DNA of 44,740 nt from the sequence record OR896838.1; one strand, 5' to 3'. Below, piece by piece: positions 5,218 through 42,579 of this stretch. The first letter of the stretch is position 1. Each line of letters starts with the position of its first letter. The position numbers and the translations under genes were made by a program. The notes beneath the pieces were generated by a model. It was not told the DNA's origin. It did no database searches and saw only the letters and a program-made list of their open reading frames with translations. Source of the DNA: Escherichia phage McMelon.

Positions 5218-5246
5218 TTTTATGTCCTCGTTGTTGGTGTGCAACC

Positions 5247-5275
5247 AATATATGCAACCAATACGCGGATTGCAA
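5247..5275 (-). promoter_or_regulatory. sigma70-like promoter (TTGCAA-17-TATATT) for 4453..5217
   Basis: Minus-strand reading: TTGCAA, 17-nt spacer, TATATT, then GGTTGCACACCAACA and RBS; same -10 and downstream 21-mer as the promoter at 39364..39392. Confidence 0.45.
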
Positions 5276-24756: not shown

Positions 24757-24785
24757 AATATAGTTGGTTGCATTATTGGTTGCAA
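24757..24785 (-). promoter_or_regulatory. sigma70-like promoter (TTGCAA-17-TATATT)
   Basis: Minus-strand TTGCAA, 17-nt spacer containing AATGCAACCAA, then TATATT; same family as 5247, 26426 and 39364. Confidence 0.45.
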
Positions 24786-26425: not shown

Positions 26426-26454
26426 AATATAATGCAACCAATATGATTATGCAA
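26426..26454 (-). promoter_or_regulatory. sigma70-like promoter (TTGCAT-17-TATATT)
   Basis: Minus-strand TTGCAT, 17-nt spacer containing ATTGGTTGCAT, TATATT. Confidence 0.45.
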
Positions 26455-26459
26455 CCAAT

Positions 26460-32378: not shown

Positions 32379-33158
32379 TTAACGGCGGCGACGTTTACGT
32401 GGCGCTTCGTCTTCGTCGTCGTCCTCATCTTCGTCATCGCGTGGCTTACGACGTTTGCGAGGTTTTTCATCTTCCTCATCGTCGTCGTCATCGCGGCGCT
32501 TGGATTTCTTGGACTTGCGCGGCTTGTCATCTTCATCATCGTCATCACGACGTTTTGACTTTTTGGACTTGCGCGGTGCTTCGTCTTCGTCGTTGTCCAG
32601 GTCTTCATCGGAGCAAGACGACCCGCCACCTCCGAAAGCTTCGCCGTCTTCACGGAATCGCAGACCCAGCAAGCCAGCCCCGAGACCCTTGCCGTTGGTA
32701 TTGTTCCACGCCCAAATATCCAGGGACACATTGCAATAACAACCGGAGTAGATCTCCTGGCCTTCGATCTCGTCGCCTTCTACGGTCAGACCTTGTTCCG
32801 TCTGCTTCTCTCCGAGTGACGTTTGAATGATCGGCTGTTTGAACGATTTGGCGTTGATGTACAACATGCCTTCGAATTCTTCGGTTACTTCGTCGCGCTC
32901 GTCACCGTCGCGAACTGCGCATTCCTTAGAATCCTGGGCGTAGTGGCGGTCCATCCACTTATCGGCATTCTTCTCGGATTTCAGCTTATCGGTGAGCACT
33001 GCGCGCGCTGCCGCTTCCACTTTGTCCACCTGCGGATCTTCTTTATCCAGAAGAATAACGGCACGGTATGCCGGTTTTTGACCATCCTGTTTAGGGGTAT
33101 CACGTTCCCAAATTTTAAGGAAGCATACGCGCACATTTTTCAGGTTGACTTTAGCCAT
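32379..33158 (-). CDS. single-stranded DNA-binding protein (T7 gp2.5 / DUF2815-like) with C-terminal acidic/basic repeat tail
   Basis: N-terminus MAKVNLKNVRVCF typical of gp2.5-like SSBs; C-terminus has about 3 tandem repeats of KPRKSKKSKRRDDDD(E/D) encoded by about 60-bp DNA repeats. Confidence 0.55.
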   Translation of the reverse strand: MAKVNLKNVRVCFLKIWERDTPKQDGQKPAYRAVILLDKEDPQVDKVEAAARAVLTDKLKSEKNADKWMDRHYAQDSKECAVRDGDERDEVTEEFEGMLYINAKSFKQPIIQTSLGEKQTEQGLTVEGDEIEGQEIYSGCYCNVSLDIWAWNNTNGKGLGAGLLGLRFREDGEAFGGGGSSCSDEDLDNDEDEAPRKSKKSKRRDDDDEDDKPRKSKKSKRRDDDDDEEDEKPRKRRKPRDDEDEDDDEDEAPRKRRRR

Positions 33159-33248
33159 TTTCCAATTCCTCATTTTCACATGTATCGGGGTTATTGGAGG
33201 CCACCCCGTTCGGCTTGGTTGCCAATTTACTTGGTTGCGCTTAAGCGG

Positions 33249-35330: not shown

Positions 35331-35361
35331 CTCTAAAAAGAGGCCCGCAGATCAGCGGGCC
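35331..35361 (-). terminator. rho-independent terminator
   Basis: GGCCCGC-agatca-GCGGGCC hairpin followed on the minus strand by CTTTTTAGAG. Confidence 0.6.
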
Positions 35362-35369
35362 GGAATATA

Positions 35370-35879
35370 TTAATCTTCCAGTTCGAAATAGGTTTCGACG
35401 ATTTCTTTTAAATCTTTGTGGAAGTCTTCGACGTCGTCGTCTTCCAGCTTGGCGATTGATTTGATCTCGAACGCTTCCAGCAGGTCGTCAAATTCGTCGT
35501 TAGCATCGTCGTCATCGCCACCGGCGATAATCGCGGCGTACTGCTTGATCTCGTCGCGCATCTCTGCCAGCGGATCGGCATCTTTCTTCCCTTTGCCTTT
35601 CGCCGGAGCTTTTTTACCCTTCGCCGGTTTTTCGTCTTCGGCTTCTTCATCGTCGTCATCTTCTACGACTTCTTTTTTGGCCTTACCTTTAGCCGGGGAT
35701 TTTTTAGATTTAGCCGGTTTTTCGTCATCGTCGTCATCTTCGACAACTTCTTTTTTGGCCTTAGACGGCTTCTTATCTTCCTGTTTACCAACGGCAGCGC
35801 CAACGGTTTCATAATGCTTTGCAATGGTTTCCAGTGCTACTACGCCGCGAGTGATCAGGTTTACGATTTGCTCAAACAT
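35370..35879 (-). CDS. highly charged repeat protein (alternating poly-Lys and poly-Asp/Glu blocks)
   Basis: 170 aa from ATG with GGAGA RBS; internal tandem repeats KKEVVEDDDDxEKPAKxKKxPAKGK; the track ORF extends to 36059 but that region looks like a 5' leader. Confidence 0.5.
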   Translation of the reverse strand: MFEQIVNLITRGVVALETIAKHYETVGAAVGKQEDKKPSKAKKEVVEDDDDDEKPAKSKKSPAKGKAKKEVVEDDDDEEAEDEKPAKGKKAPAKGKGKKDADPLAEMRDEIKQYAAIIAGGDDDDANDEFDDLLEAFEIKSIAKLEDDDVEDFHKDLKEIVETYFELED

Positions 35880-36075
35880 GGTATATCTCCGATTGGTTAA
35901 GTTTAGGTGTCGGCAGTTAACTTCGTCGGTGGCCTTAACATATTGCCAGGTTACGCGTTCTCCCGTTCGGGTAGTGGACCTGGTTATATACTCACGGTTG
36001 GGAATCCTGACACTTCGATCCGGCCCCTGCGTTGCCCCTCTCCAGTTTGCGTCCTGCATCCTGTCGACGGAGTGA

Positions 36076-36105
36076 ATGATAGATTGGTTGCAGGATGGGT
36101 GTCAA
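36076..36105 (-). promoter_or_regulatory. strong sigma70-like leftward promoter (TTGACA-18-TATCAT)
   Basis: Minus-strand perfect -35 TTGACA, 18-nt spacer containing CTGCAACCAATC, -10 TATCAT; heads the leftward operon. Confidence 0.55.
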
Positions 36106-36114
36106 CAACTAATT

Positions 36115-36150
36115 TCAAAAAAAAAGCGCCGAGGCAAAATGCGACGGCGC
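36115..36150 (-). terminator. terminator-like hairpin between divergent promoters
   Basis: Minus strand AGCGCCG-tcgcattttgcct-CGGCGCT followed by T9. Confidence 0.45.
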
Positions 36151-36221
36151 TAACCAATAAGAGACAATGAGACGAGAATTATTATTACACGCGTGCGCGC
36201 CCGTTTCAATATCCAAAGGAT

Positions 36222-36250
36222 TTGACACCGTGCAGTTTTGGGTGTAGTTT
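36222..36250 (+). promoter_or_regulatory. sigma70-like rightward promoter (TTGACA-17-TAGTTT)
   Basis: Perfect -35 TTGACA at 36222..36227, 17-nt spacer, TAGTTT; 32 nt upstream of the HTH gene. Confidence 0.5.
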
Positions 36251-36281
36251 TGTTGGTCATTAACCAACTGAGGGCAGAGCA

Positions 36282-36611
36282 ATGAATGTAAACGACGCAA
36301 TCGAAATGTTAACGAAGACTGTTTGCAGTGAGACAAGCCGGTCGTGGGCATACACCGATGCCGTGGGGGCTGTGTTATTTGAAATCGAACGACTGCGGCT
36401 TACCGAAAAAGAATTGCGCGCCAGGCTGGAACTACTCAACGGTACAGCAGCAAGCAAGCTGCAAAAACACAATGAAGAAATGGAAGAATACAAAAAGCAG
36501 GTTATCCGTTTGCGCGCCGAGGGTAAATCATGGGCGATGATTGCCGAGTTGACCGGGATTAATCAGAGCACAGTGCGCTCCTGGGTACGCAATAATAAAA
36601 CTTCTAAGTAA
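36282..36611 (+). CDS. HTH DNA-binding protein (putative transcriptional regulator)
   Basis: 109 aa; helical N-terminus; C-terminal helix-turn-helix SWAMIAELTGINQSTVRSWV; first gene of rightward operon. Confidence 0.6.
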   Translation: MNVNDAIEMLTKTVCSETSRSWAYTDAVGAVLFEIERLRLTEKELRARLELLNGTAASKLQKHNEEMEEYKKQVIRLRAEGKSWAMIAELTGINQSTVRSWVRNNKTSK

Positions 36612-36621
36612 GGCCACGGCA

Positions 36622-38886
36622 ATGAGCTTGATTAAATTCGCTGTAACAAAACCCGCTAAAAAAGGCGAAAAAGCCAGGGCGGAAAACTTCCAGATGACGA
36701 CCGATGAGTTTTTCGAATTTATCAAAGATGCGAAAGAAATCTCCTCGGTGCATATCAACAAGACGGAAGATAGAGCCGAGTATGCGCGCCGCAAGCGTAA
36801 GGCCGATGGCATCGTGGCGTATACCAGTGACGGATTGCGTCGTAAGACCAGTGCGGTGGACCGCTCGATCCTGTTCTTTGATATTGACCGCACCGACACC
36901 CGCACCCTGCGCCGCTGCCGTAAGGCGTTCATCGACGCGGGACTGGAACATGTATTTCACACCACAACCGGCGACCGCCACCCGCTGAAAGGTGGCACGC
37001 GTTGCGCTCGTTTCCTGGTGCTCACCGACAAGCCTGTACCGGCGGAAGACCTGGGCCGCGTACAGTATGCACTGTTACACCAACTGGGCCTGTCAGATGT
37101 GGACTTCGATGATTGTACGAAAGACACAAACCGCCTTATGTACCTGCCACACCAGCAGTCCGTTGTTAAGTGTCACTACGGCAAACGTGCCCGCGTCCGT
37201 CGTCTGCTTCGCCTGGCGGATAAGCTGGGAGTGGAAAAAGAGGAAGTACGACGCGAACTGACCCAGGGCGATGACGGCGTTGCGGACGGTATTCTGGATT
37301 GGTGCTTCCAGGCAGGATTCGAACCGCTGTCGTCCGGTCGTGGCTATGAAGTGCCATGCCCGAACGAACATCTGCACAGTGGTGAAGGGTCCACCGCTAT
37401 CATGGTTAAGGATGGCGAGATCCGTTTCAAGTGTATGCACACCGGCAACGAGTGCTGTTCCGAACTGAACAGACACCAGCACCTGGCGCTACGTCTTATC
37501 GGGATCCCGGACCACTTGAACGTCGAACCGCACAACATGTCACGTAAGCAAATCGCCGCCATCCTTCCGGGACTGGACGATGAGGAAGTGGAATCGTGCT
37601 ATGAACATATCGTTGATGCGGTCGGAGACGGCGACGAGTACGGCGGATGTACAGATGCAGACCTGGACAACGAGCCGGTTGCGCTGTTCAGTAAGCACGA
37701 CCCGATCATCGAGGGGCTGATTAACTTCAAATCGACCTGGTATCTTGCTGGCGGGTCGAACATCGGTAAATCGTTCTACGTGCTGGGCCAGATGGCGTCA
37801 GTATCTGCCGGTATTCCGTTCGGCGGCGCGAAGGTCGTCCAGTGCCACAACTTCTATTTCGACGCGGAAGGTGGTGAAGCCTCCAACCAGCGTAAGGAAG
37901 CATTGCAGATCAAATATGAGCACGACCTGGACAAGCTGCACATTATCGATCTGCAGTCACGCGGCTGGGATATCACCAGCAAATCCGGCTTGCGTGAAGT
38001 TATCAGCTTTATCAACCGCACCGCTAACGGCGAGCCGGTTGGCCTGGTGGCGTTCGACTCACTCAACCAGACTGTCGCGTTGCGGTCAGCCGATGCTAAA
38101 CCGTTCGACGAGAACAACGCCAGCGATATGGGCGAAGTGGTCAAAGCGCTGAAGGCTATTGCGGAAAACACAGGCGGCAGTGCGGGAGTCATCCACCACC
38201 CGGCGAAAGGTGCAAACGGCAGCAGATCTCCCCGCGGGTCCGGCGCGCTGCATGGTGCTGTCGATTCCGCGTTCTTCCTGGAGCAACCGGACGACAATCA
38301 GCCGGGCCAATTGAACCTGTACCATGAGAAGGCACGTAACGGCATCAAGCAAGCGCCGCGCGGCTTCGTTCTGCTTAAGTGCAAGGTTAAGGTGGATCTC
38401 CGCAAGTCAGAGGCGTTCGAATCGCACCAGTCCACCAGCACCGGGCCTGATTTCGGTGATGTGGTTGCAGGATGGGACGTCAAGCCGATCGCATCAACGC
38501 CACGCGACGAGACTCTTTACCTCGTACCTGTCGCCCTGGCACCGTTCGCTATTGAGCAGGCGAAGGCCGCGGGTAAGGCAGCAGTTAAGGAAGAGAACCC
38601 CGCAGGACCTCGCAACGAAAAAGAGAAAGTGCTTTATGCGGCGCTGGAAAAACTGATGGAAGATAACCCGGACCATACCGGATTCAGTAAATCGGCAATC
38701 GTCCGCCAGGCTGGACTTGCGAAAGGTGGCACATCGACGAAGGCAATAGACGATATGGTCGAGCGCGGCGTGCTCGGTTTCTATACAGATCCGCACACCG
38801 GGGCCATCTATGGGTCATCGAATATCGTCATCAAAACGAATATACCCATCACGCTTTCGGCGACCGACGATGATTTAAAAGATTAA
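36622..38886 (+). CDS. DNA primase-polymerase (AEP-type) fused to P-loop ATPase/helicase domain
   Basis: 754 aa; N-terminal acidic motif ILFFDIDR (DxD) typical of prim-pol; central Walker A GGSNIGKS. Confidence 0.8.
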   Translation: MSLIKFAVTKPAKKGEKARAENFQMTTDEFFEFIKDAKEISSVHINKTEDRAEYARRKRKADGIVAYTSDGLRRKTSAVDRSILFFDIDRTDTRTLRRCRKAFIDAGLEHVFHTTTGDRHPLKGGTRCARFLVLTDKPVPAEDLGRVQYALLHQLGLSDVDFDDCTKDTNRLMYLPHQQSVVKCHYGKRARVRRLLRLADKLGVEKEEVRRELTQGDDGVADGILDWCFQAGFEPLSSGRGYEVPCPNEHLHSGEGSTAIMVKDGEIRFKCMHTGNECCSELNRHQHLALRLIGIPDHLNVEPHNMSRKQIAAILPGLDDEEVESCYEHIVDAVGDGDEYGGCTDADLDNEPVALFSKHDPIIEGLINFKSTWYLAGGSNIGKSFYVLGQMASVSAGIPFGGAKVVQCHNFYFDAEGGEASNQRKEALQIKYEHDLDKLHIIDLQSRGWDITSKSGLREVISFINRTANGEPVGLVAFDSLNQTVALRSADAKPFDENNASDMGEVVKALKAIAENTGGSAGVIHHPAKGANGSRSPRGSGALHGAVDSAFFLEQPDDNQPGQLNLYHEKARNGIKQAPRGFVLLKCKVKVDLRKSEAFESHQSTSTGPDFGDVVAGWDVKPIASTPRDETLYLVPVALAPFAIEQAKAAGKAAVKEENPAGPRNEKEKVLYAALEKLMEDNPDHTGFSKSAIVRQAGLAKGGTSTKAIDDMVERGVLGFYTDPHTGAIYGSSNIVIKTNIPITLSATDDDLKD

Positions 38887-38961
38887 ATTCTGCGCGCATT
38901 GGTTGCCGATATGGGAATTCCCATATCGTTAGAAGATTAAATTTTGCGCGCATTGGTTGCC
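38876..38961. repeat. direct repeat - 22-bp perfect palindrome - direct repeat structure (candidate origin/operator)
   Basis: 31-bp direct repeats A(A/G)AAGATTAAATT(C/T)TGCGCGCATTGGTTGCC at 38876..38907 and 38930..38961 flanking CGATATGGGAATTCCCATATCG (38907..38928); third ATTGGTTGCC at 38986..38996. Confidence 0.6.
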
Positions 38962-39029
38962 ATTTTGAGTGTTTTTATCTGGTCGTATTGGTTGCCGTGT
39001 AGTGTAAATATAGTGAATAGTTATGCAGT

Positions 39030-39210
39030 TTTATTGCATAAAGCAAGCGGGACAAAAAGCGGGACAAACAAGGGGCGGGACAAAGCGGGACAGCACCCCT
39101 GTCCCGCCCCGGATGACGCGGCTTCCAGAGGAGCGGGACAGGCGGGACAACTCCCAGTCTTTCAGACTAGACGGGGGTCAATGGCCCCCCTCGTCTGAGA
39201 CTGAATAAAA
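39030..39210. repeat. GCGGGACA iteron / palindrome array ending in GC-rich hairpin (copy B)
   Basis: Near-identical to 10970..11140: same order of GCGGGACA units, GGCGGGAC...GTCCCGCC inverted repeat and terminal hairpin (loop differs by one base). Confidence 0.7.
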
Positions 39211-39363
39211 TCCGGGTATTGCAAAATACACGGCAGCATGATGCGAATTGCGGTCGTCGATGAACTAGGCAACCAATGCGGGTTGTATTATGCTGAGTGA
39301 AAAATGCGGTTTGCAGTCACAGCAGATAGCGATCAGCTTTTTCATGCGCGTGATTAATATTGG

Positions 39364-39392
39364 TTGCACCCACCCTGGCACCCTGCTATATT
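39364..39392 (+). promoter_or_regulatory. sigma70-like promoter (TTGCAC-17-TATATT) for rightward early ORFs
   Basis: TTGCAC, 17-nt spacer, TATATT, then GGTTGCACACCAACA and RBS GAGGAC; -10 plus downstream 21-mer identical to the 5247..5275 promoter. Confidence 0.5.
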
Positions 39393-39420
39393 GGTTGCAC
39401 ACCAACATGAGGACCGAACA

Positions 39421-42520: not shown

Positions 42521-42550
42521 TTGACTCGCAACCAACATAGGGGCCATACT
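42521..42550 (+). promoter_or_regulatory. candidate promoter (TTGACT-18-CATACT)
   Basis: Directly after terminator; followed by GCAACCAATCAAC motif and strong RBS. Confidence 0.35.
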
Positions 42551-42579
42551 GCAACCAATCAACGAGAGGAGTAATCAAG

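Follow-up and report, generated by a model that had tools for sequence, protein, structure and literature searches.

The 402-bp gap in which the two large gene blocks of Escherichia phage McMelon diverge contains a structured leader RNA which, as judged from the covariation of its base pairs, is a real, accessory and horizontally shared phage RNA. This leader defines an RNA family of which we found no trace in Rfam 15 or in the literature searched. We consider it probable that the region as a whole is the central divergent early-promoter hub of this virulent Dhillonvirus, with three predicted promoters of the sigma-70 type (PL, PR and PS). We establish here which sequence features are present, how far they are conserved and that base pairs covary; from this we infer transcription, RNAs and binding. 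The window referred to below is the whole 44.7-kb stretch of McMelon DNA, and all coordinates are positions on it (Table 1).

A sensitive BLAST search with the intergenic region returned matches in unannotated DNA of phages in which that query detected no other similarity. Alignment on the leftward strand delimited a conserved element of ~190 nt, reaching from the predicted PL start to the first leftward gene. Enterobacterial siphophages from about ten genus-level groups carry the leader, their hosts being Escherichia, Salmonella and Klebsiella. Besides Dhillonvirus, these include Hanrivervirus slyngel, Warwickvirus JLBYU07, Murrayvirus Lumpael, Sortsnevirus IME279, Jilinvirus PT1 and Changchunvirus PHB17, as well as the unclassified phage BUCT618, the Drexlerviridae phage KMI8 and the phage "Motto" (Tempevirinae). 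Pattern scans of viral and metagenome contigs yielded more copies, and looser patterns in viral contigs retrieved the same phage groups and chance matches only. The leader always lies on the coding strand, with a sigma-70-type -10 hexamer a few bases before its first helix, and an open reading frame (ORF) with its own ribosome site begins 20-40 nt past its last helix. The ORFs downstream of it are unrelated to one another across phages. In several T1-like and related phages the leader is preceded by a conserved promoter (ATAGCAC-N4-TTGYTAAA ... CATAAT), and since this promoter is conserved ahead of the leader, the mobile unit seems to be promoter plus RNA.

The leader helices were derived by hand and a covariance model was then built on them. 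They include a closing helix (P1), a hairpin with a GGA loop (P2), a long-range helix (GGAGC/GCUaCC) and two arms inside that long-range helix. The model recovered 35 copies in the loci first searched and 13 in further viral contigs (136-187 bits; some of the loci are duplicates), and it placed a single copy in the window (36069..35909, 152 bits, E=1.6e-40). On the model-fitted alignment 93.8% of cells were standard pairs, compared with 30-41% when the partners were slid by 1-3 columns. On the same alignment 18 of 40 pairs had changed on both sides (3-7 when slid), and the covariation score was 0.365 (at most 0.066 when slid). With a plain MAFFT alignment, 85.6% of cells were standard pairs, compared with 30-46% after sliding by 1-3 columns; 17 of 41 pairs had changed on both sides, and the covariation score was 0.243 (at most 0.097 when slid).

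The junction sequences of the leader (GGAGAGG, ACGCAGGGG, GGAUUCCCAACCGUGA, AGAACGC and CGACGAAG) are near-invariant across host genera. Because they hardly differ between phages of Escherichia, Salmonella and Klebsiella, they hint that the leader may bind a conserved host component. At the 5' end of the leader (36068-36040 in the window), the 3' part of the 5' strand of P1 can also pair instead with the base of the P2 hairpin. A C-to-U change there in Motto is compensated in both possible partners, a single event which hints that the leader may adopt two mutually exclusive conformations.

In Rfam 15, no family matched anywhere in the window at the gathering score, and what weak matches there were, to terminator-like small RNAs and including those in the region at E<=10, were at chance level; none covered 35909-36069 at E<=10, and two further divergent members of the family had no match either. 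The leader segment (35905-36070) had no copy in 5,426 E. coli genomes. Among 185,579 species genomes a single match turned up, in a metagenome-assembled genome on a contig of phage size (42.7 kb). A host origin was rejected on these grounds, namely the lack of an E. coli match and the phage-sized contig that carries the sole match among species genomes. A coding explanation was rejected as well: in several members all three sense frames are interrupted by stops, and no frame stays open throughout the family.

Within Dhillonvirus, the leader is cleanly missing in phages Envy, WF5505 and LM40P1, which have a hairpin of ~18 nt in its place and retain the promoters, the small-RNA unit described below and the ribosome site. 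The covariance model found no leader copy anywhere in the Envy genome.

The leader would be transcribed from PL. The original prediction for this region, made from the sequence of the window alone, had proposed strong divergent promoters with perfect -35 hexamers 115 bp apart, which we measured as 116 bp. The leftward sequence bore this out, with PL matching the consensus at 11 of 12 positions in a promoter scan. The rightward promoter, PR, likewise has a perfect -35, but that it is strong was not established: its -10 agrees with the consensus at three of six positions (T1, A2 and T6), which is why it falls below the threshold of the scan. The pattern TTGACA-N16-18-TANNNT has two matches in the whole window, where 0.6 would be expected; these two are PL and PR, and both lie inside the 402-bp gap at which gene orientation flips. 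When nine Dhillonviruses were aligned, neither -35 hexamer varied, the PL -10 was always TATCAT, TATTAT or TAATAT, and at PR the spacer drifts while the -10 is retained (TAGTAT in HK578). Hexamers 16-18 nt apart that are conserved while the spacer drifts are what is looked for in sigma-70 promoters, and the predicted promoters show them; the conservation pattern of these putative elements is that of working promoters. The GenBank record of HK578 already annotates three "promoter" features here, two leftward and one rightward, at positions matching PL, PS and PR, so that the bare observation of promoters is not new.

A GC hairpin with an A/T-run had also been noted between the two promoters, and both are present (stem AGCGCCG/CGGCGCT at 36125-36131/36145-36151, A9 at 36117-36125). 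They are not a neutral spacer, however. On the plus strand the A9 precedes the stem and no T-run follows it; read leftward, the hairpin is a predicted intrinsic terminator of canonical form, a GC hairpin followed by a U-tract being found on the minus strand only. Its predicted folding energy was -16.7 kcal/mol (z=-2.5). LM40P1 retains the stem by means of two double (compensatory) changes (GCGCCG/CGGCGC to TCCCCG/CGGGGA), and the annotation of WF5505 has a terminator at this position. The terminator would serve PS, a third predicted promoter that the original prediction missed. In the promoter scan PS matched 10 of 12 consensus positions plus the TG, and both of its hexamers are invariant in all nine phages. 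PS stands back to back with PR, with predicted starts ~83 bp apart.

As PS and the terminator delimit it, the interval between them is a candidate small-RNA unit of ~58 nt. Its 25-nt body, from the predicted start to the hairpin, is invariant in the nine phages, and a few bases after the -10 vary. This unit, probably a small RNA, has the anatomy of one that acts by base pairing. No Rfam family, C4 included, matched the small-RNA region significantly. The 5' part of the RNA complements the ribosome-binding site (RBS) region of the first leftward gene (UAACCAAUCGGAGAUA, 35899..35884). A duplex drawn by hand has 13 Watson-Crick pairs, two G-U pairs and one mismatch over 16 positions, and its core was returned by a repeat finder as a 14-nt inverted repeat that is 86% complementary. 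With RNAduplex this pairing scored -18.8 kcal/mol, a value equalled by 7 of 2000 shuffled seeds. A number of further early start regions gave scores of about -20, because CAUUGUCUC complements GAGACAAUG.

The third component of the region is a repeated, operator-like motif, TGCAACCAAT, which the original prediction had given as ATTGGTTGCA. It occurs at 19 sites in the window at no more than one mismatch, whereas 3.2 would be expected. The sites (among them 5240-5262, 21338, 24763-24784, 26433-26459, 38898-38996, 39268-39399, 39929 and 42530-42559) often form tandem pairs in intergenic DNA, spaced by 12-31 bp, and stand in either orientation to the direction of transcription. In Envy there are 15 such sites where 3.05 would be expected; tandem pairs recur, and one copy lies in the same intergenic gap. 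These sites look like the regulon of one phage DNA-binding protein, and the copy in the PL spacer is a candidate operator. The shorter core AACCAAY has 4 of its 27 genome sites in the 402-bp gap, where ~0.24 would be expected if they were spread evenly. A fifth, inverted ACCAAC completes the palindrome GTTGGTcattaACCAAC over the predicted PR start, and the ACCAAY core is common to the palindrome and the genome-wide motif. Since the palindrome straddles the predicted start, part of it would be untranscribed, which favors a DNA operator over an RNA hairpin. It is conserved in eight of the nine Dhillonviruses and is missing in HK578, whose helix-turn-helix (HTH) protein has a different N-terminal part.

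This HTH protein is the product of the first rightward gene. That the gene encodes a small HTH protein, as originally predicted, is supported by Pfam (HTH_23 2e-7, Sigma70_r4_2 2e-6 and HTH_28; HTH_3 at 0.0035 was below its cutoff). An AlphaFold2 model with a mean predicted local distance difference test score (pLDDT) of 84 has a helix at residues 26-79 and the HTH at 84-107. When solved structures were searched with this model using Foldseek, matches covered the 35-residue HTH only and were of the LuxR/GerE, resolvase and transposase types, all with E>0.3; no Cro or cI was among them. It had been suggested that the protein may be Cro-like or autoregulatory; by Pfam and Foldseek it is not of the Cro or cI family, but autoregulation is plausible because the palindrome sits over the predicted PR start. 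Judging by position and joint conservation, the protein is a fair candidate to read the motif sites and possibly an autoregulator. Among its homologues residues 47-106 are almost invariant and residues 1-45 hypervariable. The protein is a mosaic, its N-terminal 45 residues being swapped for unrelated sequences among phages, as diversifying selection on a domain, or its exchange, would be expected to bring about.

Table 1 Predicted features of the divergent control region and its flanks in the window.
Feature	Position	Strand	Description
Strong intrinsic terminator	35342..35361	-	7 GC pairs then T-run, directly after the first leftward gene
First leftward gene	35370..35879	-	169 aa, charged repeats: acidic runs alternating with lysine-rich stretches
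Translation start region, first leftward gene	35877..35900	-	TTAACCAATC, GGAGA 35890..35886, ATG 35879..35877
Structured leader RNA, 161 nt	35909..36069	-	5' end of predicted PL transcript; nine helices, two multi-helix junctions
PL, leftward early promoter (predicted)	36076..36105	-	TTGACA 36105..36100, 18-nt spacer, TATCAT 36081..36076; predicted start ~36069
TGCAACCAAT motif in PL spacer, candidate operator	36083..36092	-	Copy invariant in 9 phages
Leftward intrinsic terminator (predicted)	36117..36151	-	AGCGCCG..CGGCGCU then U9; 7-bp GC stem
Predicted small RNA, ~58 nt	36117..36174	-	25-nt single-stranded 5' part CGUCUCAUUGUCUCUUAUUGGUUA plus terminator hairpin, long U tail
PS, third predicted promoter	36181..36209	-	TTGAAA, 17-nt spacer, AATAAT, upstream TG; predicted start ~36174
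PR, rightward promoter (predicted)	36222..36250	+	TTGACA 36222-36227, 17-nt spacer, TAGTTT 36245-36250; predicted start ~36257
Palindrome GTTGGTcattaACCAAC, candidate operator	36252..36268	.	Over predicted PR start
First rightward gene	36282..36611	+	109 aa, one long helix plus C-terminal HTH

McMelon was assigned to Dhillonvirus (HK578-like), to our knowledge a strictly lytic genus, by the 2 kb around the site, which are 94-99% identical to many genomes of this genus (HK578, SSL-2009a, JL1, welsh, Gluttony and others). In the paper on the BASEL collection, the Dhillonviruses are small siphoviruses and kin of the T1-like Drexlerviridae (PMC8594841). Our gene map combines a greedy ORF map with the annotation of a 96%-identical relative, Gluttony_ev152 (NC_073087), and has two large gene blocks of opposite orientation. 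The leftward block runs for ~13 kb, from ~36059 down to ~23200, and is devoted to DNA metabolism, with a DUF2800/PD-(D/E)XK nuclease, an Enc34-type ssDNA-binding protein, DNA polymerase I, a helicase and a methylase among its products. The rightward block begins at 36282 with the HTH protein, followed by a 754-aa primase-helicase, small genes and then the lysis and structural genes. Only at the gap between them (35880-36281) do the two blocks diverge, and it is here, at ~36 kb, that the cumulative GC skew is lowest. A scan for tRNA and tmRNA genes found none.

The first leftward protein belongs to PHROG 3127, of unknown function, and had no Pfam match. The terminator that directly follows its gene is also annotated in PTXU06 and WF5505 and lies ~20 nt from the next ORF; given its strength, the ~12 kb of replication genes downstream would need read-through or internal promoters that we did not recognize. 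Long tails of alternating acidic and lysine/arginine-rich repeats (e.g., DDDDEDDKPRKSKKSKRR) occur in two leftward proteins, this one (35370-35879) and the Enc34-type ssDNA-binding protein (32379-33179), and phages welsh and bob carry an annotated repeat_region in the equivalent gene. Farther to the right, the gap after the primase-helicase gene holds an iteron-like array (38875-39151) with three 33-nt repeats ending ATTGGTTGCC, five copies of AAGCGGGACAAA and an inverted GGGACAGG pair. This array is a better candidate for the replication origin than the promoter region.

We propose that these elements would act together in the following way. On phage entry, host RNA polymerase would use PL, PR and PS. 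The single-stranded 5' part of the small RNA could then damp translation by pairing with the RBS region of the first leftward gene and, less strongly, with the start regions of other early genes. A phage DNA-binding protein, for which the HTH protein first made from PR is the best candidate, would occupy the AACCAAY/TGCAACCAAT sites, including that in the PL spacer, as well as the palindrome at the PR start, and lower early transcription. The folded leader would be an optional promoter-proximal module that probably binds a conserved host component, whereby the stability, translation or elongation of early transcripts may be altered, or it may act in trans. For the leader itself, we see roughly even chances for a more far-reaching proposal. 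It would be a functional phage RNA of a class not described before, carried with its promoter as a cassette that is passed between genus-level groups of virulent siphophages of Escherichia, Salmonella and Klebsiella. Made within seconds of the onset of infection, it would target a host component that is conserved, be it RNA polymerase, the ribosome, an RNA-binding protein or an immune system. With the 58-nt RNA, which takes the place that cI has in lambda, it would make the control region largely RNA-run.

Several observations weigh against this model. The -10 of PR is weak. The window leader folded alone is no better than shuffled sequences (z=+0.3), and since Envy lacks a leader genome-wide, the leader is dispensable. 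A genome-wide scan for targets of the small RNA found nothing above the shuffled-seed background except the RNA's own locus and, because it places such energies within the background, the assigned target is put forward here as hypothetical. Moreover, the paired seed and RBS region share the AACCAAT motif and could be two DNA sites rather than partners in RNA pairing. Lastly, HK578 retains the HTH domain without the PR palindrome, and what ties the HTH protein to the motif is position and joint conservation only.

Other roles for the leader can be envisaged. The most credible of these, which we regard as possible but not favored, is that it is a trans-acting accessory RNA, made as soon as infection begins, that could serve as an anti-defense decoy or soak up a host RNA-binding protein such as CsrA and is only incidentally fused to the first mRNA. 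Its clean presence or absence within one genus, its movement with the promoter as a cassette between phage groups whose downstream genes are unrelated and its occurrence in phage records and phage-sized contigs only would all suit such an RNA, as would a hairpin loop, CA(A)GGAU(U)G, which may resemble a CsrA site, together with further invariant GGA motifs. However, there is no 3' terminator or processing signal between the leader and the ORF. The multi-helix junctions with invariant unpaired GGAGAGG, AACCGUGA, AGAACGC and CGACGAAG, combined with covarying stems, are the signature of ligand-binding or catalytic RNAs and bring to mind a new riboswitch or self-cleaving ribozyme class. We consider this doubtful: no known class matches, the downstream genes are unrelated and follow no metabolite logic, and an expression platform is lacking, since a terminator is absent and the ribosome site 20-40 nt downstream is not paired in any conserved way. 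The lack of a terminator, of conserved RBS pairing and of a consistent gene partner argues against a classical riboswitch in particular. A role like that of put in phage HK022, where the nascent RNA would bind RNA polymerase and make it resist the downstream leftward terminators, appears somewhat less probable still. As with putL and putR, the leader is a structured RNA right after an early promoter of an enterobacterial phage, in an operon with a terminator; it starts a few bases from the promoter, as does putL (PMC9378689), the first gene is closed by a strong terminator with only ~20 nt left to the next ORF, and the extreme conservation of the junctions across hosts suggests a conserved host partner. 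Yet put is ~70 nt long with two stem-loops (PMC9378689), and the leader, at 160 nt with nine helices, is twice that size. In addition, the covariance model of the leader found nothing in the HK022 genome at E<=10, WF5505 retains the terminator without having the leader, so that terminators do not co-vary with it, and a scan of the unit past the leader found no internal terminator-like site in BUCT618 and weak ones only in KMI8. On the whole, the terminator context agrees with antitermination only in part.

The region as a whole is likewise open to other interpretations. Our consensus scans gave 4 promoter-like sites when 3.1 would be expected in shuffled sequence, and no target of the small RNA was convincing genome-wide; both facts would be accommodated if PS were a non-functional match, no small RNA were made and the hairpin were a mere insulator against stray leftward read-through into PL. 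Against this account, which we think unlikely, the PS hexamers, the TG and the 25-nt body are invariant in nine phages despite diverged flanking coding DNA, and the bases at the predicted PS start vary, as expected of a real transcription unit. PS is also the sole leftward promoter-like site in the 130 bp from the hairpin to the first rightward gene, the other leftward match lying within that gene. A replication origin, in which transcription from PS and/or PL would activate or prime replication, the A-run would unwind and the G-rich leader would form an R-loop, is less probable as the primary role. The cumulative GC-skew minimum at ~36 kb, the replication genes on both sides, and the short terminated predicted transcript with an A9-11 tract fit an origin, as do the position of the PT1 leader directly after the primase gene and that of the PHB17 leader ~700 nt upstream of the helicase gene. 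The skew switch tracks the switch in transcription direction equally well, however, Envy, WF5505 and LM40P1 have the same replication genes without a leader, the array past the primase gene is the better iteron-like one, and covariation on the transcribed strand points to RNA structure.

The original prediction likened the region to the early switch of lambda, and a lysis/lysogeny switch with an unrecognized repressor gene is the reading to which we give the least credence by far. Divergent promoters stand back to back here as in the lambda immunity region, with the predicted PS and PR starts ~83 bp apart, a distance similar to that between PRM and PR in lambda, and the first PR gene likewise encodes a small HTH protein. 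However, McMelon belongs to a genus regarded as strictly lytic, no gene lies between the promoters (36105-36222 has no ORF with a plausible start, only the 58-nt RNA unit), and in place of tripartite dyad operators there are one palindrome at PR and one asymmetric TGCAACCAAT in the PL spacer. The statement that no cI-like repressor or integrase could be recognized held up: no integrase, excisionase or repressor is annotated in the 96%-identical Gluttony_ev152, nor an integrase or repressor in Envy, although not every ORF of the window was scanned. The leader segment, as mentioned, was not matched in E. coli genomes. Compared with lambda, the region lacks a repressor gene, an integrase, tripartite 17-bp operators and an N/nut system, and the leftward partner of PR is predicted to yield a 58-nt terminated RNA instead of cI.

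The proposed divergent hub may also be compared with phi29, in whose central control region the early promoters A2b and A2c and the late promoter A3 are regulated by p4. Both phages are virulent and have close divergent promoters in one short intergenic region, apparently controlled by a small DNA-binding protein via repeated sites. They differ in that there is no sequence or protein homology, and in that early or replication genes lie in both directions here, so that the region need not be an early/late switch. The candidate small RNA resembles lambda oop, P22 sar and P1/P7 c4 in its length of ~60-80 nt, in having its own promoter and intrinsic terminator, and in lying in a regulatory region. 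It shares with c4 a position on the same strand as the proposed target and upstream of it, as well as complementarity to the RBS of that target; unlike oop and sar, it is antisense to no gene.

Divergent phage promoters alone are ordinary. What this region adds is a new structured RNA family and a compact model of early control. We found no study of this region or of its early regulation in the literature on Dhillonvirus and Drexlerviridae searched with promoter or RNA terms, and searches for the TGCAACCAAT motif and for strings of the leader sequence found nothing relevant. For a virulent T1-like phage, the model combines three predicted promoters with a candidate small RNA and with a repeated motif that resembles an operator. 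The natural presence and absence of the leader within one genus, with Envy, WF5505 and LM40P1 lacking it, provides ready-made, isogenic-like controls for leader function. If the leader indeed acts on RNA polymerase, the ribosome or defense, it would be a new tool and would represent a new kind of host takeover.

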